From the sequence record NC_048638.1: a stretch of 64,000 nucleotides of DNA; one strand, 5' to 3'. A program made the translations under genes and the position numbers. Shown piece by piece: positions 36,191-49,680 of the stretch; the stretch's first letter is position 1, and every line of letters begins with the position of its first letter. This DNA comes from Pseudomonas phage ZC03. The notes under the pieces are model-generated. The model did no database searches. It saw nothing but the letters and a program-made list of their open reading frames with translations, and was not told the DNA's origin.

Positions 36191-36267
36191 ACACCCGTAG
36201 CTCAGTTGGATAGAGCAGGAGCCTTCTAAGCTTTTGGTCGTAGGTTCGAATCCTACCGGGTGTGCCA
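36191..36267 (+). tRNA. tRNA-Arg (anticodon TCT)
   Basis: Manual cloverleaf: acceptor ACACCCG/CGGGTGT, D-arm GCTC..GAGC, anticodon loop CTTCTAA, T-arm GTAGG-TTCGAAT-CCTAC, CCA encoded. Confidence 0.75.
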
Positions 36268-36274
36268 ATTAAGA

Positions 36275-36351
36275 GGGTCTCAAGCTTAAGTGGTATAAGC
36301 ATCCCGCTCATAACGGGGAGATACAGGGTTCAAATCCCTGGAGACCCACCA
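36275..36351 (+). tRNA. tRNA-Met/Ile2 (anticodon CAT)
   Basis: Acceptor GGGTCTC/GAGACCC, anticodon loop CTCATAA, T-arm CAGGG-TTCAAAT-CCCTG, CCA encoded. Confidence 0.7.
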
Positions 36352-36370
36352 AAACGTGTTTACTTACAGT

Positions 36371-36434
36371 CGTACTATCTGATGAGCTTCCGACTATAAA
36401 TGAAGCGAAACTCCTGTAAGGGAGTCATAGTGTC
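36371..36434 (+). ncRNA. hammerhead ribozyme (open stem I, type I topology)
   Basis: Complete core read directly: stem I 5' GTACTAT, CUGAUGA, stem II GCTTC-11nt-GAAGC (G10.1-C11.1), GAA, stem III ACTCC-TGTAAG-GGAGT (A15.1-U16.1), C17, stem I 3' ATAGTG. Predicted cleavage after C at 36426. Confidence 0.7.
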
Positions 36435-36677
36435 TGCTATGAGTAGACCATGAATGAGTTGTTACCCTTATCATTCATGTTATGTTAATGACTACTGAGC
36501 AACTCAAAACTCATAGTCGATGGGTAACGGTAGCCTTGAGAAAGCTACAAGTTGTTCGTTGTGCTAGTATTCAGGACGAGAAGACAGGATGTCCTGGTAC
36601 GGTATAGTGAGCAGCCGTCAACCATCCTGATGGGGATTCCGGAGTCTTTGTTAGGATGGTTGGTGGATGTTCATTAT

Positions 36678-36752
36678 TGGTAAGTAGCTCAATGGTAGAG
36701 CATCCGGCTGTTAACCGGACGGTTGTAGGTTCGAGTCCTACCTTACCAGCCA
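36678..36752 (+). tRNA. tRNA-Asn (anticodon GTT)
   Basis: Acceptor TGGTAAG/CTTACCA, anticodon stem TCCGG/CCGGA with loop CTGTTAA, T-arm GTAGG-TTCGAGT-CCTAC, CCA encoded. Confidence 0.75.
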
Positions 36753-36756
36753 ATTT

Positions 36757-36835
36757 TGGTAAGCTGGCTCAGCTAGAGGGCTGGTGGATCTGGTTTCTAG
36801 CGATCAGATTACAGGTTCGAATCCTGTCTTACCAA
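36757..36835 (+). pseudogene. degenerate tRNA-like element (same acceptor stem as tRNA-Asn; no canonical anticodon arm)
   Basis: Perfect 7-bp acceptor TGGTAAG/CTTACCA and T-arm ACAGG-TTCGAAT-CCTGT, but the D and anticodon regions cannot be folded into a 5-bp stem with 7-nt loop. Confidence 0.4.
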
Positions 36836-36845
36836 TCAATTTATT

Positions 36846-36920
36846 CGGAGTGTAGCGCAGAGGTAGCGCGTCTGCTTTGGGAGCAGAATGTCGGGAGTTC
36901 GATCCTCCCCACTCCGACCA
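36846..36920 (+). tRNA. tRNA-Pro (anticodon TGG)
   Basis: Acceptor CGGAGTG/CACTCCG, D-stem GCGC/GCGC, anticodon stem TCTGC/GCAGA with loop TTTGGGA, T-arm GGGAG-TTCGATC-CTCCC, CCA encoded. Confidence 0.75.
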
Positions 36921-37153
36921 AACACCTTTCCCCCGAGGTGTAATAGTGCCTCATCGACGCCTCATCGAGAAAGCACTAACCGTTCCCTCTGGCGGTATAT
37001 CCAGAGGGCATTGAAAAGGGATCGTGAACCGCAGTTGATCGAGCGGGATTGTTCAGTAGGGTCCGTGTGTCCTGTCGCGCGAAAGGATTACCTCCCTCTG
37101 GCCCGGTTTGCCCCGGACGATCCTTTCTCAATGCAAGTGAATGTATTGAAAAG

Positions 37154-37233
37154 AACCCTGTAGCTGAATTGGTTCACGCGCTGGCGATTACGGGCAACGT
37201 CCAGAGATGCAGGTTCGAATCCTGCCAGGGTTC
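37154..37233 (+). pseudogene. tRNA-like element without a resolvable anticodon arm, flanked by 19-bp direct repeats
   Basis: Acceptor AACCCTG/CAGGGTT (complementarity extends to 10 bp) and T-arm GCAGG-TTCGAAT-CCTGC. An exhaustive by-eye search found no 5-bp/7-nt/5-bp anticodon arm. Flanking repeats are TTCTCAATGCA(A/G)GTGAATG at 37125..37143 and 37234..37252. Confidence 0.35.
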
Positions 37234-37398
37234 TTCTCAATGCAGGTGAATGCGTAGGCTGATGCGCCTCTGGAACTTGCAATGGCCAGCGGCCCAGATT
37301 CTGCGGGGGTCGCAAGCCGGAGATCAGCACCGGCCACCTGCATTACCCGTGCGACGGGTAGCTGGGAATATTCGCGTCATCCAATACCAGCACTTTAA

Positions 37399-37482
37399 GG
37401 GGAAGTGGTGTAGTGGTAGCCACGCTGGTCTTAGAAACCAGTGCTGAAAAGCGTAAGGGTTCGAATCCCTTCTTCCCCACCA
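37399..37482 (+). tRNA. tRNA-Leu (anticodon TAG), class II
   Basis: Acceptor GGGGAAG/CTTCCCC, anticodon stem CTGGT/ACCAG with loop CTTAGAA, long variable arm, T-arm AAGGG-TTCGAAT-CCCTT, A73, CCA encoded. Confidence 0.7.
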
Positions 37483-37487
37483 ATTAA

Positions 37488-37574
37488 GGAAGAGTGGCAG
37501 AGTGGTTTAATGCATCGGTCTTGAAAACCGACGACTGTAATGGTCCGTGAGTTCGAATCTCACCTCTTCCGCCA
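37488..37574 (+). tRNA. tRNA-Ser (anticodon TGA), class II
   Basis: Acceptor GGAAGAG/CTCTTCC, anticodon stem TCGGT/ACCGA with loop CTTGAAA, long variable arm, T-arm GTGAG-TTCGAAT-CTCAC, G73, CCA. Confidence 0.7.
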
Positions 37575-37580
37575 ATCAAT

Positions 37581-37656
37581 GCCAATGTAGCTCAATAGGT
37601 AGAGCAGTGCTCTTGTAAAGCAAAGGTTGTAGGTTCGATTCCTATCATTGGCTCCA
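37581..37656 (+). tRNA. tRNA-Thr (anticodon TGT)
   Basis: Acceptor GCCAATG/CATTGGC, D-arm GCTC..GAGC, anticodon loop CTTGTAA (one mismatch at 27:43), T-arm GTAGG-TTCGATT-CCTAT, CCA. Confidence 0.65.
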
Positions 37657-37660
37657 ATAC

Positions 37661-37737
37661 GCGGGTGTAACCCAACAGGCAGAGGTAGAGGACTTAAAAT
37701 CCTTTCAGTGTGGGTTCGAATCCCACCACCCGTACCA
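37661..37737 (+). tRNA. tRNA with anticodon TAA (Leu-UUA reading) but a short class I variable loop
   Basis: Acceptor GCGGGTG/CACCCGT (G1-U72), anticodon stem GAGGA/TCCTT with loop CTTAAAA, 5-nt variable loop, T-arm GTGGG-TTCGAAT-CCCAC, A73, CCA. Confidence 0.5.
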
Positions 37738-42613: not shown

Positions 42614-42769
42614 ATAATAAAAAAACCCACTACGAACTTCGTACTGTCACTGACTTTGTAATTTGTCAGTATGTCGATTTTGGCATGTTAAAGCGCCATC
42701 TGACGACACATTACAGTCATCTGACAAATTACAAGATCCTCAAAATTACCAAAGAAGAGGAAATCATCT

Positions 42770-43561
42770 ATGAAGTCTCCAGCAGTCCAGAAACAAGAAC
42801 ATCTAGAGACTCTGTACAACAAGTTTCAGCAGATTCCCTTTCTGACCAAGCTGTTTGAAGAGGCTAACATTGCACCAGCAGGTGACCCTGCAACACCTCA
42901 TATCATCAAGCTTCTGGTTCATCTTGCTATACAGAAACGGCTACAAGTAGGGGCTGCTATTGGAATATTAGCTTCCAAGATCAGCCTTGAAGATGCTGTT
43001 ACTGTTATTGAGGCTTGTGTAGAAGCTGGGATTGTGGCTCATGATCCTAAAAAGAATGAGCTGATAGTAGTGCTGGAACCAGACAAGGCTACACAGGAGA
43101 AGATGAAACATTATATGTTTCCACCTCCTATGGTATGTAAGCCTAAGACTGTAAAGCACAATGGACAGTCTGGATATCTTCTGATTGATACTTCTGTAAT
43201 GACTAAGAAGTCTCATACCAAAGAAGATGTCTGTCTGGATGTAATAAACATCCTTAACAGTTTCCAGTTCAAGTTGAACCTGGACATCTTGAAATACTCA
43301 TCTAAGTACAAGTCTCTTTCTAAAATGAAAGAAGGAGAAACTGTAATTGAGTACAACAAGAGGCTGAAGCAATGGAAAAACTTTGACAGTGAAACTCGTG
43401 AGCTGATCAAGAATCACTATTCTGATGAAGATACTATCTGGTTCACTCACTGCTACGATAAAAGAGGTAGGATCTACTGTCGTGGATACCACTTCAATTA
43501 TCAAGGCTGTGAGTGGAGAAAGGCTCTTATCCAATTTGAACCAGAAGTCCTTCAGGAATAA
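42770..43561 (+). CDS. RNA polymerase II small subunit (N4 gp15-like, N-terminal-domain half of a split T7-like RNAP)
   Basis: 263 aa, immediately upstream of the catalytic-half gene. The sizes match the N4 RNAPII heterodimer (about 269 and 404 aa). Confidence 0.55.
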   Translation: MKSPAVQKQEHLETLYNKFQQIPFLTKLFEEANIAPAGDPATPHIIKLLVHLAIQKRLQVGAAIGILASKISLEDAVTVIEACVEAGIVAHDPKKNELIVVLEPDKATQEKMKHYMFPPPMVCKPKTVKHNGQSGYLLIDTSVMTKKSHTKEDVCLDVINILNSFQFKLNLDILKYSSKYKSLSKMKEGETVIEYNKRLKQWKNFDSETRELIKNHYSDEDTIWFTHCYDKRGRIYCRGYHFNYQGCEWRKALIQFEPEVLQE

Positions 43562-43613
43562 AAGCTAACTGGCTTACTGAATAAAGGCACTTACATAGTG
43601 CCTTTTTTATTGC

Positions 43614-43817
43614 TTGGAGGAAGCAGTAATGATTAATACCACACTCTTGGTTACTCGCTTGAATGCTAGATGTCTGCAAGTTGTAGCTGAAGAGTCAGGA
43701 GTATCTTATTCCTGTCTTTCAAACATTAGGCACGGTAGGACCAAGCTACCTCAGCATAGGACATTGGTAAAACTTCTTCCTGTACTCGGATTGAAGCTGG
43801 AGATCAAGAATGCTTAA
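43614..43817 (+). CDS. small HTH (XRE-like) DNA-binding protein
   Basis: 67 aa; LQVVAEESGVSYSCLSNIRHGRTK helix-turn-helix signature; lies between the two RNAPII subunit genes. Confidence 0.4.
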   Translation: MEEAVMINTTLLVTRLNARCLQVVAEESGVSYSCLSNIRHGRTKLPQHRTLVKLLPVLGLKLEIKNA

Positions 43818-45003
43818 TCTCACTCCCAAAGACTTCCTTTATTCTGAGATCGCTGGTCGATTTGGTAAGGACAAAGAGAGCTGGGAAAACAGATTACTTT
43901 GGTGTCTGCTCAATATTGATCATCTTGAAGAGCTGGCCTCTGAAGCCAAAGAACCAATCCTGTATCAAGCTGCTGTTCAAGCTCTGAGAGATGTAGAAGC
44001 AGGAAAACCCACTGGGTATCCAGTTATGTTTGACTGCTCTGCTTCAGGTATGCAACTCCTCTCGATTCTTACAGGAGATAGGAATGCTGCTCGTATCTGC
44101 AACGTCATAGGCCAATCCTTCATTGATCCTTATATGCACCTTCATGGTTCCATGCAGGAGCGTCTGGGAACCAATGAAACCATTGAACGGGATTCAGTTA
44201 AGCAAGCCATTATGACTAGCCTCTACGGCTCTGAAGCTGAGCCAGGAAAGCTATTCCAAGGTGATGCATTGAATGCTTTCTACGAGACCATGGAAGCTGA
44301 GCTGCCTCTGTGCTGGGAACTCAATCAGGCGATTCTGGATTTCCTCAAGGAGAGTGATGCAGAGTCCTATGACTGGGTGATGCCTGATAACTTTCATGTC
44401 TTCTGTCCTGTAACTGAAACGGTATACACAGAGGTAGCCTGCTTGGGTTCTACCCATGTGGTAGGACAGAAGAAACAGCAGGCTCATCGAAGGAATAGAA
44501 GCCTCGGAGCCAATATGACTCATTCTGTCGAGTCTTTCTTGGTTCGTGAGCTTATCCGTAGATGCAACGTACCCAGTGAAACCCGTATCAAAGTACAGGA
44601 GCTACTCAATACATGGAGAACCAGTGACAAGCACAGTAGGAAAGGAAATGTGGAGATGGTCCTCAAACTTCAATCTCTGTACGAGAAGTCAGGATTCATG
44701 TCTGCACGCATCTTTGAGTATCTGGATAACATCAGTATTCAACTTGTGGACATAAAGGCTGTAGAGAAGATCTTCAAAACAGTTCCTGATAAAACCTTTC
44801 CGATTAAATCAGTACACGACTGTTACGCTACCCATCCCAATAATGCTTTGGATCTTCTTTTGGTGTTTAGAAGTCTCTACGCCGAGCTGTCTCAAAGCAA
44901 CATGCTTAACTACTTATTGGGATGTATAAGTGGTGATGATATGGGAGTAGACATTGAAGATATGTCTGAAGACATTCTTCAAGCTACCTATATCCTCACC
45001 TAA
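43810..45003 (+). CDS. RNA polymerase II catalytic subunit (N4 gp16-like; T7-like palm/fingers)
   Basis: 397 aa; FDCSASGMQ (T7 RNAP DGSCSGIQH motif A analogue) and VHDCYATHPNN (HDSFG motif C analogue). Confidence 0.65.
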   Translation: MLNLTPKDFLYSEIAGRFGKDKESWENRLLWCLLNIDHLEELASEAKEPILYQAAVQALRDVEAGKPTGYPVMFDCSASGMQLLSILTGDRNAARICNVIGQSFIDPYMHLHGSMQERLGTNETIERDSVKQAIMTSLYGSEAEPGKLFQGDALNAFYETMEAELPLCWELNQAILDFLKESDAESYDWVMPDNFHVFCPVTETVYTEVACLGSTHVVGQKKQQAHRRNRSLGANMTHSVESFLVRELIRRCNVPSETRIKVQELLNTWRTSDKHSRKGNVEMVLKLQSLYEKSGFMSARIFEYLDNISIQLVDIKAVEKIFKTVPDKTFPIKSVHDCYATHPNNALDLLLVFRSLYAELSQSNMLNYLLGCISGDDMGVDIEDMSEDILQATYILT

Positions 45004-45009
45004 CACACT

Positions 45010-45041
45010 CCCACAGGTTAACGCCTGTGGGAATTTTTTTT
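45010..45041 (+). terminator. rho-independent terminator
   Basis: CCCACAGG-TTAACG-CCTGTGGG followed by AATTTTTTTT. Confidence 0.65.
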
Positions 45042-45052
45042 AAGGAAAGACA

Positions 45053-45250
45053 ATGAGCAATCTCAAGAATCTGTACACCATTTCCCCTAAACATGCTCCT
45101 GCCATTCTGGAGAAACTGTTTGAGGCAAATCTGGTTCCCTTCCTGAAGTCTCCACCCGGACGAGGGAAGTCAGCTTTGTTTCGTGCATTTGCTGAGAAAT
45201 GGAATTTAGAACTAATCGACATTCGACTGTCCATGTATGAGCCTCAAGAT
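45053..45250 (+). CDS. MoxR-like AAA+ ATPase, exon 1 (Walker A)
   Basis: SPPGRGKSALF Walker A; the frame ends ...IRLSMYEPQD directly before the inserted element. Confidence 0.55.
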
Positions 45251-46165
45251 TAATTTAGTCCTTTACGGTAGAAATACCGTATCGAAAATCGCCTAAACGG
45301 GGGAACTCCGACATTGATTAAATGATGAACCATATGTATTATTGGTTTACCGTTTAATCAAACAAGGACAATCCCGTGCTAAATACAATTTGGAAGCCTG
45401 TACCTGGATTTGAAGATCAGTATGAAGTTTCAAATACAGGACAAGTTAGATCAAAACTAAGGTATGTTCCTACGAGCCGAGGAAAGGGGTTAAGACCTGT
45501 AAAAGAAAAAATTATTGCTCAGACACTAGATAGTGCTAAGCAATATTTGCAGGTCTCTCTTTGGAAAAACAATACAGCAAAAACAGTAAATGTGCATAGA
45601 CTGGTTGCTTCGGCTTTCCACGAGAATAAGGACAATCTTAGAGAGGTAAACCATATAGATGGAAACAAGCTAAACAATAATGCTTGTAACCTCGAATGGT
45701 GTACTTCATCTGAAAACAAAATACATGCTAGAAAATTAGGGTTATACCCCAATCTTGGCTTGAGTGGCTCCCAAACCAGTAAAGCTATTGGCAGAAAATT
45801 TAGCAAAACCAGTAAATTCCATAATGTTGGAAGAGACAATCGTAGAAATAAATGGATTGGATCAATAAAACATAATGGAAAAACCTACAAACCAAAAAGG
45901 TTTGATTGCGAAATTGAAGCTGCCAAGTATGTAGATATGCTTTTGGATGAAGTAAACGACACAGTTCGTCCTCGAAATTCCGAATTGTTAAATGCCTAAC
46001 GACTATCCCGCAAGGGAGTAGGGCCAAGTGGCTCGAAACGGCGATAGCCCAAACAGGTCAAGCTGTGGGCTTTGATATAGTCTGCTCTGCATAGAGATAT
46101 GCAGCAGTCATAGTTTGAAGGGAACTATGACGGGTGTGACTTAACGAATCACACTGAACACAAGG
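45251..46165 (+). mobile_element. putative group I intron carrying an HNH-AP2 homing endonuclease ORF
   Basis: 915 nt interrupting the ATPase frame. P7-like GACTAT (46001) pairs with ATAGTC inside GATATAGTC (about 46083). A GNRA hairpin CCCGCAAGGG is present. There is a U at the 5' splice site and a G at the 3' end. The exon join restores EPQD-FTGLP, matching the MoxR PSDITG segment. Confidence 0.5.
45376..45999 (+). CDS. HNH homing endonuclease with C-terminal AP2 DNA-binding domain (intron-encoded)
   Basis: NHIDGNKLNNNACNLEWCTSSEN (HNH) and RKFSKTSKFHNVGRDNRRNKWIGSIKHNGKTYKPKRFDCEIEAAKYVD (AP2-like). Confidence 0.6.
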   Translation: MLNTIWKPVPGFEDQYEVSNTGQVRSKLRYVPTSRGKGLRPVKEKIIAQTLDSAKQYLQVSLWKNNTAKTVNVHRLVASAFHENKDNLREVNHIDGNKLNNNACNLEWCTSSENKIHARKLGLYPNLGLSGSQTSKAIGRKFSKTSKFHNVGRDNRRNKWIGSIKHNGKTYKPKRFDCEIEAAKYVDMLLDEVNDTVRPRNSELLNA

Positions 46166-46996
46166 TTTACAGGTCTCCCTTTCGATGACGGTAAGAAGTC
46201 CAAATTCAAGCCTTTCGATCTGCTGCCTCTTGAAGGTGATCCTTTGCCCAAGGGCAAAGATGGATGGCTGATCCTGTTGGATGAGTTCTCACATGCTGAA
46301 CCAGAAATGATTCGTGCCAGTTACAAGCTGGTATTGGATCGTATGGCAGGACAGAATCGAATTCATGAAAATGCTCTGGTAGCTCTGGCAGGTAACTCTG
46401 TAGATGACAATGCTCTAGCTAATAACACTGGTACTGCACTGAATAGCCGAGTTACTCATCTCATTCTTGGTTCTGATCCAGAATACTGGACTCAGCAGAT
46501 TGCAGCACCTCAAGGTTTTGACCACCGAGTTATTGGCTTCATCTCTGCAAACAAGGACTGTCTGAACGACTTTGATCCAGACCAAGATGAGCACAGCTTC
46601 TGCTCTGAACGTACTTGGGAATTCGTATCTCGTCTGATCAAAGGCGTTGATGACGTAAGCCCTCTGACTCCTGCTATTGCAGGCACCATCACTCCAGGTG
46701 TAGCTACGAGTTTTGTTCAGTTCTGTGATGTGTATAAGGATCTGGTCAACATTAATGATGTTGTAAATGATCCTGAGAATTGTCCTCTGCCTAGTGAAAA
46801 CGTAACACGTTGGGCATTGGTAACTCACCTGGCTAAGGAAGCAGACATAAATAACATTGAAGCATTGGCTATCTATGTTGATCGTCTGCCTATCCAGTAC
46901 GTCATTATTTTCCTTCAAATGATTCGTGGGCAGAGTAGCCTTATTTCTAATAAGAAAGTTCATGCTCTGTTGGCACGTCTCGGGAAGATGCTCTAA
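46166..46996 (+). CDS. MoxR-like AAA+ ATPase, exon 2 (Walker B onward)
   Basis: FTGLPFDD...LILLDEFSHAEPEM (Walker B and sensor). The frame is open from 46145 and joins in-frame to exon 1. Confidence 0.55.
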   Translation, partial: FTGLPFDDGKKSKFKPFDLLPLEGDPLPKGKDGWLILLDEFSHAEPEMIRASYKLVLDRMAGQNRIHENALVALAGNSVDDNALANNTGTALNSRVTHLILGSDPEYWTQQIAAPQGFDHRVIGFISANKDCLNDFDPDQDEHSFCSERTWEFVSRLIKGVDDVSPLTPAIAGTITPGVATSFVQFCDVYKDLVNINDVVNDPENCPLPSENVTRWALVTHLAKEADINNIEALAIYVDRLPIQYVIIFLQMIRGQSSLISNKKVHALLARLGKML

Positions 46997-48153
46997 TGGA
47001 AAAAGAACTCGAAAAGGCATGGGACGAGTTAGTCGTCTCTGTCTTTATAGGCTCTAATAGAGCCTTCTATGGATCACTCTTGTGTAGTCTTGACCTGAAG
47101 TGGGATGAGACTATTCCCACTGCTGCTGTTACAACTGACATGGAAATCCTTTGGAATCCCAACTTCTTTCTAAGACTCCCAAAAGAGACTCGTAAGTTTG
47201 TACTGCTTCATGAGATCGAGCACGTTGCACGTTTGCACATGATTCGTAAAGGTGATCGAGATCATGAGACATGGGTACAAGCCTGTGACTATGAAATTAA
47301 TCTGGCTCAGGTAGATGAAGGTCTTACCTACGAGGGAACCAGTCCACTTATCTCTGAAGAATATCGTGGTATGACTGCTGAGCAGATCTATGATCTGCTC
47401 CAGCAAAAGAAAGAAGATGGTGGCAATGGAGAGGAAGATAAAAATGGATCTTGGGGTGATGGCTCAACTGACATAGTGGAAGGCGAAGGTAATCAACCTG
47501 AGCTGACTCAAGCACAGATAGCCAAAATCATCAATACGGTAGCTAAAGCTATCCAGGCTGAGAAGATCTCTGGATTCAGTACAAATAAGACTGAAGCCAT
47601 TGAATCCATCCTGAATAAATTCCTTAAACCTTCTCTGGATTGGAATAAGTTTCTGAGACGGTACATGACAGATAAGTTGCAAAAGCAACTGTCATGGAAA
47701 AGGAGAAACAAGAGGTACTCAGATATCTATCTTCCTTCCCGAAGAAAAGACAAGAAGGGACTTACCAATATTACCTTCTATCTGGATACCTCTGGTTCCA
47801 TCACTAACAAGATGGTCGAGATCTTCAATTCAGAAGTGAAGTATGTATTTGAACACTTTCAGCCTAAAGCTTTGAATGTTATCCAGTTCGATACAGAGAT
47901 TCGACTTGAAACTACCTATACCAGGGGAACCAGAATCAAACAGATGAAGGTATCTGGTCGAGGTGGTACTGATCTCACCTGTGTGCATGAGCACATCAAG
48001 AAAACCAAACCCAACATTGTTGTAGTCCTGTCTGACCTTGATTGTTTGCCTATGGAAACTATCAAGGGTTTAGACATTCTCTGGATCGTGTTTAATAACC
48101 CAAATGCCCAAGTACAACAAGGTAGGGTATTCCATGTAAATACAGGGGGTTAA
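46996..48153 (+). CDS. vWA-domain protein with HExxH motif (N4 gp25-like partner of the MoxR ATPase)
   Basis: MIDAS DTSGS (FYLDTSGSIT) and LLHEIEHVARLH. Confidence 0.55.
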   Translation: MEKELEKAWDELVVSVFIGSNRAFYGSLLCSLDLKWDETIPTAAVTTDMEILWNPNFFLRLPKETRKFVLLHEIEHVARLHMIRKGDRDHETWVQACDYEINLAQVDEGLTYEGTSPLISEEYRGMTAEQIYDLLQQKKEDGGNGEEDKNGSWGDGSTDIVEGEGNQPELTQAQIAKIINTVAKAIQAEKISGFSTNKTEAIESILNKFLKPSLDWNKFLRRYMTDKLQKQLSWKRRNKRYSDIYLPSRRKDKKGLTNITFYLDTSGSITNKMVEIFNSEVKYVFEHFQPKALNVIQFDTEIRLETTYTRGTRIKQMKVSGRGGTDLTCVHEHIKKTKPNIVVVLSDLDCLPMETIKGLDILWIVFNNPNAQVQQGRVFHVNTGG

Positions 48154-48345
48154 ATGAAAGATAAAGAGAAAGAATTGGAAAAATGGCTAGAAGCCTGTCC
48201 TCTGCCAGTAATCGGTAGAGTACTGGATGACAAAACGGATATCCGTTTTTTAGCAGCATCTCATTTTCTTTATAAAGAAGACCCATTAATTGCTATTCCA
48301 TTAAGCACACTTGCTTCGCTTCTATTGAAAAGAGAGCAGCCATGA
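48154..48345 (+). CDS. hypothetical protein
   Basis: 63-aa ORF in the middle-gene series. Confidence 0.3.
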   Translation: MKDKEKELEKWLEACPLPVIGRVLDDKTDIRFLAASHFLYKEDPLIAIPLSTLASLLLKREQP

Positions 48346-48605
48346 CAGCCAAAAAATCCAACAAAGAAAAGAAGCCATTGCCTGGCTTTGAATTAACTGA
48401 AGTAGCATTAATTGCTTCTTTTTTGAAAATAGAAGCCTTGGAAGAAGAAAACGAGAAGCTACGCCAACTCCTGAAAGAACTGGTTTCTTGGATTCCCTCA
48501 GCTGATACCTACAGACGTTTGGGATTTGACCCCGAAGCACCAATGCGAGCGTATAAAGAGGCTAAAGCTGTACTAGGTATCACAAATAGTAAAGAAAATG
48601 CGTAA
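48342..48605 (+). CDS. hypothetical protein
   Basis: 87-aa ORF; overlapping starts/stops. Confidence 0.3.
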   Translation: MTAKKSNKEKKPLPGFELTEVALIASFLKIEALEEENEKLRQLLKELVSWIPSADTYRRLGFDPEAPMRAYKEAKAVLGITNSKENA

Positions 48606-48969
48606 ACGAAAAGGTCAACCATCAAATGTAATTACTTTGCCAACATGGCTATCTCAACGAAGTAAATACATAACCAAAACAGGTGGTGATTGGGGACCAG
48701 AAACTGTAGCTCTATGTCTGGCTCTGTCTTTACGAATTCACGGCACTGTTGATCAAGTTCGAGTAACTGCTCGTAGGTTGGCAGAACGTGTGTGTCGTGA
48801 ACAGGAGCCAAAACTGAAAGGTATTGCTAGGGAACCAGATGACTCAATCGTAGTAATGACTGCTGAGTCCATCGTAAACCGAGTATGTGACCTTCTGGAG
48901 ATTGATCCTGAATATAGGTTTACGTCAGGACTAGAAGTGAAGACGAATCATGAAAATCAGAACCAGTAA
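48598..48969 (+). CDS. hypothetical protein
   Basis: 123-aa ORF. Confidence 0.3.
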   Translation: MRKRKGQPSNVITLPTWLSQRSKYITKTGGDWGPETVALCLALSLRIHGTVDQVRVTARRLAERVCREQEPKLKGIAREPDDSIVVMTAESIVNRVCDLLEIDPEYRFTSGLEVKTNHENQNQ

Positions 48970-49351
48970 TCTGATGGGATCTGCTCTCGATTGGGCAGTC
49001 ATTGTGGCAGAACACGGCAAGCATGATGCCAATAACCTATCCCACATAGAACATTTCAAGAACATACGTGAAGGACATTCTCTGCACCAGCAAGCTCATT
49101 ACTCTACTAATTGGTCACATGGTGGACCAATCATTGAGAGGGAAGGAATTGCTATCCGTGAAATCCATCCAGTTTCTGGAGAAAACGGGTACATCTTCAC
49201 ACGACGCTGGATAGCCGAGATGTTCCGTTTTCCTGGTGGACCACGGAAGGCCGTAGCCTACGGCACTACTCCCCTTATTTCTGCCATGCGTTGTTACGTC
49301 ACTTCCCGTCTTGGAAATGAAGTTGAGATACCAGAGGAATTATTAGGATGA
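48950..49351 (+). CDS. hypothetical protein
   Basis: 133-aa ORF. Confidence 0.3.
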   Translation: MKIRTSNLMGSALDWAVIVAEHGKHDANNLSHIEHFKNIREGHSLHQQAHYSTNWSHGGPIIEREGIAIREIHPVSGENGYIFTRRWIAEMFRFPGGPRKAVAYGTTPLISAMRCYVTSRLGNEVEIPEELLG

Positions 49352-49680
49352 AAACTCTCTATGAAGTGAACTGGCATTACAATAATGACCTGCTGATAGG
49401 TATTAGCGTAACTCCCATCAAAGTACTACGTGAAGGTATCTTGCCTGGATGTTCAGCAGTTTCAATTTCAGCAGTAGATAAAGATGGTCATCAATTTCTA
49501 GGTAATCCTGAAGATTACTTTGAGACTGAAGAAGCTGCATGGAAGCAGGCAACAGTTGATCTTCAAGAAACTATTGCATCAGAGCAGCAGGCCATAGATG
49601 AAGCACAAAAACGTATTGAAAGCTTTCGCAATGTTCTCTCAACAATGCACGGAGAAATGCTGAATTTGTTATTGCGATAA
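49348..49680 (+). CDS. hypothetical protein
   Basis: 110-aa ORF. Confidence 0.3.
   Translation: MKTLYEVNWHYNNDLLIGISVTPIKVLREGILPGCSAVSISAVDKDGHQFLGNPEDYFETEEAAWKQATVDLQETIASEQQAIDEAQKRIESFRNVLSTMHGEMLNLLLR

Follow-up and report, generated by a model that had tools for sequence, protein, structure and literature searches.

In the td intron of phage T4, the open reading frame (ORF) of the endonuclease I-TevI overlaps the ribozyme core, a layout described as 'core creep' for td/I-TevI and others, together with non-AUG start codons and sequestered ribosome-binding sites (PMC3073962). In N4-like phages, Fouts et al. (2013) reported HNH genes splitting the homologues of gp24, DNA polymerase and gp43 in the Vibrio phages JA-1 and VchO139-I, and considered them possibly carried on introns (PMC3670811). 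Amgarten et al. (2017) described an 'HE element' that splits one gene of the Pseudomonas phages ZC03 and ZC08, its protein being predicted in two pieces; a genes-in-pieces case and an intron case were cited as parallels, without ribozyme analysis, and the fused protein was suggested to be a ribonucleotide reductase (PMC5418858). The subject of the present analysis is this same gene, at 45,053 to 46,996 of a 64,000-nucleotide (nt) stretch of ZC03 (NC_048638.1; hereafter the window, to which all coordinates refer unless another locus is named). ZC03 is an N4-like Zicotriavirus, 97% identical to ZC08 in this region. The gene codes for an ATPase of the gp24 type, and the 915-nt insert that interrupts it is very probably a mobile group I intron of the T4 td type, subgroup IA, with splicing as a prediction.

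The interruption by an endonuclease gene was already known and has not been recognised as a ribozyme in print. A first-pass annotation, made from the letters of the window, had proposed the intron and supposed that none had been reported in the gp24-like ATPases of N4-like phages; this supposition was wrong in view of PMC5418858 and PMC3670811. What is new is modest: a ribozyme model with exact splice sites, empty-site alleles with a co-conversion pattern, the overlap of ORF and core at both ends of the endonuclease gene, a three-site pattern in gp24 homologues, and a reinterpretation of an insert in the RNAP2 gene of ZC08.

The interrupted ATPase gene and its uninterrupted alleles

The features of the interrupted gene are as follows.

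45053..45250, plus strand: exon 1 of the gp24-type AAA+ ATPase (ORF list; exact match to ZC03_061; aligned with residues 1-66 of uninterrupted homologues)
45251..46165, plus strand: predicted group I intron, td-like IA type, 915 nt (empty-site alignments; RF00028 match; covariation)
45364..45378, plus strand: predicted translation start region of the endonuclease (sequence and helix map)
45376..45999, plus strand: homing endonuclease gene, 207 amino acids (aa), NUMOD4 plus HNH_3 (Pfam, PHROG, PDB 1U3E, codon bias)
46166..46996, plus strand: exon 2 of the ATPase, 276 codons plus stop, with Walker B (LILLDEF)

The exon-1 ORF (45053..45253, 66 aa) reads ...SPPGRGKSALF...IRLSMYEPQD, carries the Walker A motif (GRGKS) and is followed immediately by TAA. 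The last of its 66 codons is GAU, whose U45250 is the predicted 5' splice-site U. The insert begins with UAA, which in unspliced RNA is a stop codon in frame, and its last base is G46165 (omega-G). The reading frame of exon 2 is open as of 46145; exon 2 itself starts at 46166 with UUU (F67), and its translation runs FTGLPFDD...LILLDEF. The insert falls between codons D66 and F67, in the motif EPxD^(F/L)TGLP (a caret marks a junction), which is the most conserved stretch between Walker A and Walker B. There is no conventional start codon at the junction; the earliest in frame is TTG 46244, 26 codons downstream, and only there does the public annotation of ZC03 and ZC08 begin the exon-2 piece. 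A start at that position would cost 26 residues (67-92), ten of them invariant across homologues. The 207-aa and 250-aa products correspond to ZC03_062 and ZC03_063, respectively.

Two intron-less alleles were available, an IMG/VR contig (L004) and a Logan contig (L032/P0007). Both contain an uninterrupted 342-aa ORF reading SMYEPQDFTGLPFD, collinear with exon 1 plus exon 2 and without any gap at D66^F67. The L004 protein, which reads ...SMYEPQDFTGLPFDN..., is 82% identical to the joined exons, and the L032 protein, which reads ...SMYEPQDFTGLPFDD..., about 97%; the L032 DNA across the site is ...TATGAGCCTCAGGACTTCACTGGACTGCC.... The DNA alignments of both alleles to the window break off at 45249 and restart at 46166. 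N4 gp24 and two further orthologues also align over the junction without gaps, with P64, D66, G69, L70 and P71 invariant. Since the intron-less DNA and protein alignments close the gap there, the insert is exactly 45251..46165. Other splice registers were rejected, as only U45250/G46165 gives a U at -1, a terminal G and the D^F junction of the empty alleles. The features listed are far beyond chance.

The first-pass annotation had located the Walker A half, the Walker B half and the 915-nt gap at these same coordinates and had read the two halves as one ATPase gene split by an insert, which the two intron-less alleles bear out by closing the gap exactly. Its predicted junction, EPQD^FTGLP, is the sequence present in the L004 and L032 ORFs, and the alignment with intron-less homologues that it had proposed puts the insertion site at D66^F67, in agreement with the predicted boundaries.

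Concerning the identity of the interrupted protein, the joined 342-aa product matched phrog_1297 (PHROG 'ATPase') over residues 5-342 with E = 1.3e-107. The proteins of N4, inbricus and Zuri were 38-41% identical to it, and GxGKS and LDE were invariant. By sequence comparison, the split gene is assigned to the N4 gp24-type phage ATPases (PHROG 1297); the match to that profile (1e-107) and the identity to N4 gp24 and its orthologues leave the published suggestion of a ribonucleotide reductase unsupported. A 68-position profile of unknown function, phrog_21479, matched the whole exon-1 fragment (E = 1.6e-36). The more specific 'MoxR-type' label of the first-pass annotation is not established: the best Pfam scores of the ATPase were 14.3 bits for AAA_5 (cutoff 22) and 15.1 bits for AAA (cutoff 21.2), with no match to AAA_3, and the NCBIfam search gave no relevant match. 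In a PDB profile search the sole match was the midasin AAA domain (E = 1.9e-4), and an AlphaFold single-sequence model (predicted local distance difference test, pLDDT, 43.7) was too poor for a fold search. A partner gene with a VWA-like domain adjoins the ATPase gene, which is no more than suggestive of a MoxR-like pairing; the MoxR-type class is plausible.

Ribozyme model, natural variants and competing explanations

The helices of the ribozyme model are the following, minimum free energy being abbreviated as MFE.

45248..45260, plus strand: P1 (MFE fold with exon context; pair check)
45264..45281, plus strand: P2 hairpin, 7 bp, GAAA tetraloop (MFE fold; pair check)
45288..45393, plus strand: 5' core strands and P5 extension (MFE fold, covariation, pair check)
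45288-93, plus strand: P3 5' strand; 45297-302 with 45372-77: P4; 45307-09 with 45366-68: P5
45314-24 with 45351-61, plus strand: P5a; 45326-32 with 45343-49: P5b
45378-79 with 45994-95, plus strand: P6; 45385-93 with 45980-88: P6a
45980..46165, plus strand: 3' ribozyme domain (MFE fold, covariation, pair check, RF00028, identity to the Berlin and td loci)
46001-05 with 46078-82, plus strand: P7; 46006-09 with 46014-17: P7.1 (GCAA loop); 46021-25 with 46030-34: P7.2
46040-45, plus strand: P3 3' strand; 46046-51 with 46066-71: P8 (inner helix 46054-56 with 46063-65); 46072-77: J8/7
46087-93 with 46098-104, plus strand: P9 (GAGA loop); 46107-15 with 46123-31: P9.1; 46133-39 with 46149-55: P9.2; tail to G46165

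P1 is formed by G45248-C45260, A45249-U45259, the wobble U45250.G45258, U45251-A45257 and A45252-U45256, so that the wobble at the splice site is flanked by two exon-side and two intron-side pairs. Behind the endonuclease ORF lie GACTAT (46001-46006), CCCGCAAGGG (46007-46016) and TTTGATATAGTC (46071-46082); the first-pass annotation had correctly taken these elements as the P7 5' strand, a GNRA hairpin, which is P7.1, and the P7 3' strand. An unconstrained MFE fold, with the ORF loop replaced by GAAA, recovered the group I topology, i.e. P2, P3 enclosing P4, P5, P5a, P5b, P6 and P6a, and then P7.1, P7.2, P8, P9, P9.1 and P9.2. The 3' tail CUGAACACAAGG^ aligns with CUGAACAUAAUG^ of the T4 td locus, with G46165 as omega-G.

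Covariation was analyzed over nine ORF-less cores: those of the window, T4 td, a T4-like td, Berlin, a Klebsiella phage, a Xanthomonas phage, Vibrio phi 1, Gamaleyavirus NAN33P5 and Pseudomonas KIL2. The consensus fold by RNAalifold had 56 pairs, located in exactly the group I helices, and 44 of them showed compensatory changes. When the P7 pseudoknot was added, 95.5% of the cells were paired, versus 37-43% with the 3' partners slid by 1-3 columns. Double changes occurred at 45 of the 61 pairs, and no measure observed was reached by any of 500 shuffles. In the MAFFT register the window misses four of the 61 pairs because an extra G in P4 shifts the register by one column; in the correct register every window helix is fully Watson-Crick or G.U. 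The strands of P6a are unrelated in sequence (ACAAUUUGG/CCGAAUUGU in the window, UGUAGGAC/GUUCUACA in T4, UUUAAUAAUG/CAUUAUUAAA in phi 1) and its position is constant, the segment after GCUAAAU pairing with that preceding UAAAUGCC...GACUA. Both P7.1 and P7.2 covary across the nine-intron family, and their presence between P7 and the 3' strand of P3 is the hallmark of subgroup IA in the Michel-Westhof classification.

At the gathering threshold, an Rfam search of the whole window gave no intron match. A permissive search gave RF00028 at 45919..46104, with E = 5.7e-4 in a 1.15-kb search and 0.031 window-wide; it was the only intron-type match in the window and lay inside the gap. The covariance-model check suggested in the first-pass annotation gave a sub-threshold match inside the proposed intron, at 25 bits against a cutoff of 50. 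For calibration, the model was also applied to an annotated T4-like td locus with an I-TevI homologue (42.7 bits) and to the annotated DNA-polymerase locus of Berlin (26.2 bits), each of which stayed under 50; the contiguous intron of ZC08 RNAP2 reached 88.9 bits. Because annotated ORF-bearing intron loci also fall below the gathering score, the null at that score was not counted as a negative; the low value is attributed to the 586-nt P6a loop, which holds most of the ORF and splits the model.

Homology to known introns was found at both ends. Over 57 nt (45984-46040) the insert is 91-94% identical to two loci annotated as split genes, td and a T7-like DNA polymerase (E about 1e-11 to 1e-12). 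Each of these has an endonuclease ORF between the gene halves, and the matching stretch adjoins the 3' end of that ORF. The T4 and T4-like td loci contain near-copies of the insert's 5' end, of the junction segments from P3 to P6 and of its 3' tail, with UAAUUxAG..., CUAAACGGGGAAC, GACAAUCCCGUGCUAAAU and ...CUGAACAxAAxG^ in common. When the 5' ribozyme domain was compared with the phage collection by BLAST, ZC08 was the only match; the homology of this domain to the introns of the td loci and of phi 1 was recognised by visual inspection and alignment. The full helix set, the strong covariation and the homology to td and DNA-polymerase introns uphold the group I reading of the first-pass annotation.

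Natural variants of the locus were also compared. The intron occupies the same site in ZC03, ZC08 and three metagenomic copies found by exact-cluster look-up, L033 and L034 (about 90% identity) and L035 (95%), all gap-free; it is missing from L032 and L004. The ribozyme halves are 0-8% diverged, as against 15-16% for the flanking exons. Among the helix pair-cells of the copies, 246 are unchanged, 11 changed but kept and six broken. In L033/L034, six substitutions in P5a leave 10 of its 11 pairs intact, and the loop of P2 is GAGA, which keeps the GNRA pattern. The claim that the intron is more conserved than its surroundings was rejected for ZC03 versus ZC08, whose genomes are identical over 45105-49500, exons included. 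As far as the contigs reach, all intron-plus alleles have A(-4), T(-1), T(+3) and A(+6) as synonymous markers, where both intron-minus alleles have G, C, C and T. Exon 1 of L033 is L004-like up to its final 30 nt, which equal ZC03, and exon 2 of L035 is L032-like apart from its first 8 nt. This pattern is that expected of homing with short co-conversion tracts, an indication short of proof.

Several observations weigh against a splicing intron. P1 has only three contiguous exon pairs, beyond which A45247, i.e. A(-4), is mismatched with C45261; the guide sequence would pair better with the G that the intron-less alleles have at -4. P10 is nearly absent, with U46166-A45257, next to P1, as its sole pair. 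The 25 bits of RF00028 are below the gathering score of 50. An SD-like (Shine-Dalgarno-like) sequence, GAAGGTGA, stands 4 nt before TTG 46244 and would permit separate translation of the C-terminal piece, and published particle proteomics found both pieces at low level, ZC03_061 with one peptide and ZC03_063 with two. As to P10, it is usual but not universal, and its near-absence weakens exon ligation without being a disqualifier.

The weak P1 with its A.C mismatch, the almost complete lack of P10 and the sub-threshold Rfam score speak for a decayed intron, i.e. a relic ribozyme, inactive or helper-dependent, with an ATPase that is dispensable or made at trace level. Set against this, all core helices are intact, the junction segments match those of the T4 td locus exactly or almost exactly, divergence is lower in the ribozyme than in the exons on either side, and ribozyme changes across copies 5-10% apart mostly preserve pairing. 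Moreover, ZC03 is a viable lytic phage, and the gp24 orthologue belongs to the 15 ortholog groups listed as the most conserved in N4-like phages (PMC5418858). It seems reasonable to regard decay as very unlikely.

The SD-like sequence and the peptides would suit instead an endonuclease cassette without splicing, in which the 66-aa Walker A peptide and a 250-aa protein started at TTG 46244 reassemble. Both database annotations list the halves as separate genes, and the nrdA gene of Aeromonas phage Aeh1 is among the parallels cited by the original paper, the title of its reference 36 describing an endonuclease insertion that leaves the reductase split yet functional (PMC5418858). The proteomics cannot tell splicing from separate translation, because the search used split ORFs only. 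The 2024 ZC03 paper does not mention introns, and its particle proteomics, searched with the split annotation, contained no peptides of the HNH protein. In its table the exon-2 piece is labelled 'DNA-endonuclease I-HmuI', while the exon-1 piece is annotated as a hypothetical protein. Unspliced pieces are difficult to reconcile with a complete, covarying group I core around the ORF, with the U at -1 and the G at the final intron base, with an excision that gives the exact uninterrupted sequence of two relatives, and with the loss of residues 67-92 and their ten invariant positions. In addition, the L004 codon aligned with TTG 46244 is CTC, so there is no conserved start at that position. On these grounds the unspliced alternative is very unlikely. 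An intein (stop codons and a frame change), a group II intron (no group II match in Rfam) and an assembly artefact (same insert in the genomes of two isolates and in three metagenome assemblies independent of each other) were rejected, no support for any of them having been found, and are scarcely credible.

Endonuclease gene, proposed homing and possible expression switch

With the group I intron as the preferred reading, its endonuclease ORF extends from GTG 45376 to TAA 45997-99, 1 nt ahead of P7. The first-pass annotation had described a 207-aa HNH plus AP2 endonuclease. The length and the HNH part hold, as Pfam found HNH_3 (33.1 bits, cutoff 24.8; 4e-8) besides NUMOD4 (53.9 bits, cutoff 23.4; 2e-14); the AP2 label is not established, its match being weak (15.0 bits versus a cutoff of 33.3, E = 0.031, residues 151-184). 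The protein also matched PHROG 59 (4e-44) and, over residues 6-116, I-HmuI (PDB 1U3E; E = 6.8e-12), and it is classed as I-HmuI-like, of the NUMOD4-HNH type. A search of IMG/VR for relatives of the endonuclease found none above 48% identity, in the N-terminal half only. Substitutions in the ORF fall on codon positions 1, 2 and 3 in the proportions 7/5/50 (L033/L034) and 3/1/27 (L035), with synonymous to nonsynonymous codons at 45:10 and 27:3, respectively. Because of this excess of third-position and synonymous changes, the endonuclease gene is maintained by purifying selection.

The two ends of the ORF coincide with the ribozyme core. The Shine-Dalgarno (SD) sequence AAGGA (45364-68) overlaps the P5 3' strand and is followed by a 7-nt spacer, and the GTG start (45376-78) belongs to P4 (3' strand) and to the first pair of P6. 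Codons 4-6 make up the 5' strand of P6a, whose loop contains most of the ORF; the last codons provide the 3' strand of P6a and J6/7. This is the core-creep layout mentioned above. The start layout AGGACAAUCCUAUG is common to ZC03 and the DNA-polymerase intron of Vibrio phi 1. An internal promoter for the endonuclease was considered and rejected: a sigma-70-like TTGATT-17-TATTAT was found at 45314..45342, in a count of two matches compared with 4.5 in shuffles. This match is situated in the P5a/P5b extension and precedes the endonuclease start by about 35 nt.

In the mechanism proposed, the pre-mRNA would fold into the ribozyme, P1 to P9.2, and exogenous guanosine would attack after U45250, held in the U.G wobble with G45258 in P1. 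The 3'-OH of exon 1 would then attack after the terminal G46165, joining GAU^UUU and restoring the 342-aa ATPase. The predicted junction in the spliced mRNA is ...CCTCAAGAT^TTTACAGGT..., and the predicted tryptic peptide across it is LSMYEPQDFTGLPFDDGK. In unspliced RNA, translation of the ATPase would halt at the UAA that forms the first intron codon. In a mixed infection, the endonuclease would cut or nick intron-less alleles close to the insertion site, and repair off the intron-bearing genome would copy the intron together with a few flanking exon bases. We infer catalysis, translational coupling, endonuclease specificity and homing from the sequence.

Because the SD, the GTG and the last codons are themselves core strands, ribozyme folding and endonuclease translation would be mutually exclusive. 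A tentative proposal, which we consider possible and somewhat short of probable, is that the intron acts as an expression switch setting the ratio of spliced ATPase mRNA to endonuclease, with the gp24-type ATPase as a recurrent target. The design of such a switch, with the SD and a non-AUG start in the core, is common to the phi 1 DNA-polymerase intron.

Neighbouring features and comparison with known systems

Two features flank the interrupted gene.

45009..45041, plus strand: terminator-like hairpin, 10-bp stem and T8 run, between the RNAP2 stop (45003) and the ATPase start
46996..48153, plus strand: downstream partner gene, N4 gp25 homologue (Pfam: DUF2201_N, metallopeptidase-like, and VWA-like DUF2201)

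The partner gene overlaps the ATPase stop codon. In view of the terminator-like hairpin, the ATPase/VWA pair may be a separate or attenuated transcription unit. Further upstream, an ORF of 67 aa (43614..43817) lies between an RNAP1-like gene (42770..43561) and RNAP2 (43810..45003), whose start it overlaps by 8 nt; its ZC08 counterpart is annotated as 'transcriptional regulator'. A tRNA cluster (36191..37734) has nine genes at the Rfam gathering score and a borderline tenth match at 36758..36834 (27.6 bits versus a cutoff of 29), in agreement with the published description of ZC03 and ZC08 as tRNA-carrying N4-like Pseudomonas phages.

The RNAP2 gene of ZC08 (L001 2324..3295) has an extra insert of about 970 nt, the empty site in the window being 44822/44823. 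The insert gives a strong RF00028 match (88.9 bits) followed by a 210-aa ORF, and the predicted splice is GACU^GAAC...GAUG^GUUU, inside a ...VHD-C-(Y/F)... motif that we take to resemble motif C of T7 RNAP. It was published as an 'HE insertion' and as a model for the origin of two-subunit N4-type RNA polymerases; if it splices, RNAP2 is probably not split and the two-subunit argument would have to be reinterpreted. Between the window and ZC08 there are 167 mismatches in 42717-44817, concentrated in the RNAP2 exon immediately before the ZC08 intron site, ten in 45005-45104 and none in 45105-49500. This asymmetry suggests a tract of co-conversion or recombination on one side only, connected with the gain of the RNAP2 intron by ZC08.

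As for its consequences, the analysis implies that the 66-aa 'hypothetical protein' and the 250-aa 'ATPase' of ZC03 and ZC08 should be replaced by one predicted spliced 342-aa gp24-type ATPase. The locus also offers a natural case of probable intron homing between related phages, with plus and minus alleles and short co-conversion tracts in public data. The understanding of group I introns is unchanged by the finding.

Compared with known systems, the locus resembles Aeh1 nrdA in that a conserved gene is annotated as two ORFs around an endonuclease gene (the free-standing mobE in Aeh1), and it differs by its complete ribozyme and exact splice boundaries. The gp24 homologues of JA-1/VchO139-I and NAN33P5, like that of ZC03, contain an HNH-carrying insert with group I features. 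That of JA-1 (L008 19548..21292) is split just after Walker B, with RF00028 at 22.5 bits, and that of NAN33P5 (L012 607^1473) by an 865-nt td-like intron with a NUMOD4-HNH ORF at R215^T216. Neither insertion site is the D66^F67 of ZC03, and the differing sites point to independent invasions; the gp24-type ATPase appears to have been invaded at at least three distinct sites in Schitoviridae, each in a conserved protein stretch. With I-HmuI of SPO1, from a Bacillus phage DNA-polymerase intron, ZC03 shares the endonuclease family and the N-terminal NUMOD4/HNH arrangement. However, the SPO1 ORF is in P8 (PMC3073962, Table 1) and that of ZC03 in P6a, and the C-terminal DNA-binding part is not alignable.

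The T7-like DNA-polymerase introns of Yersinia phage Berlin and relatives, whose genes are annotated as joined coding sequences, have their endonuclease ORF in the P6 loop, as in ZC03, and share 94% identity over the P7/P7.1/P7.2 core. They differ in the P3-P6 sequences, in the host gene and in the endonuclease, which in Berlin is endonuclease-VII-like. Among the nine introns compared, that of Vibrio phi 1 DNA polymerase shares most with the window: the P5 extension, a GNRA-looped P2 and AGGACAAUCC-NUG, by which the start of the ORF comes to lie in P4. The ORF that it carries is also the best match to the ZC03 endonuclease among those compared (43% over 199 aa, E = 5.5e-47). On the other hand, with its splice sites as predicted, it is in another host gene and another phage genus, its nucleotide identity is 62%, and its P7 has a compensatory U-A to C-G change relative to ZC03.

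The T4 td intron belongs to the same lineage and has the same architecture as that of ZC03, P1-P9.2 with P7.1 and P7.2. Both begin with UAAU, the UAA being an in-frame first codon, contain CUAAACGGGGAAC, GACAAUCCCGUGCUAAAU, UAAAUGCCUAACGACUA and GAUAUAGUC, end with ...GAACAxAAxG and have the ORF in the P6a loop. In both, the ORF finishes with AAU GCC UAA, in core sequence before P7 (L009 1092..1113 in T4, 45980..46001 in ZC03). Two unrelated endonuclease genes, GIY-YIG in T4 and HNH in ZC03, use the same loop of a shared intron scaffold. Compared with td, the ZC03 intron is in an ATPase gene, encodes a NUMOD4-HNH endonuclease and has a large P5a/P5b extension; its P1 is shifted by one base and weaker, and core identity is about 58%. 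Finally, in ZC03 the 5' end of the ORF overlaps the core as well, with the SD in P5 and the GTG in P4.

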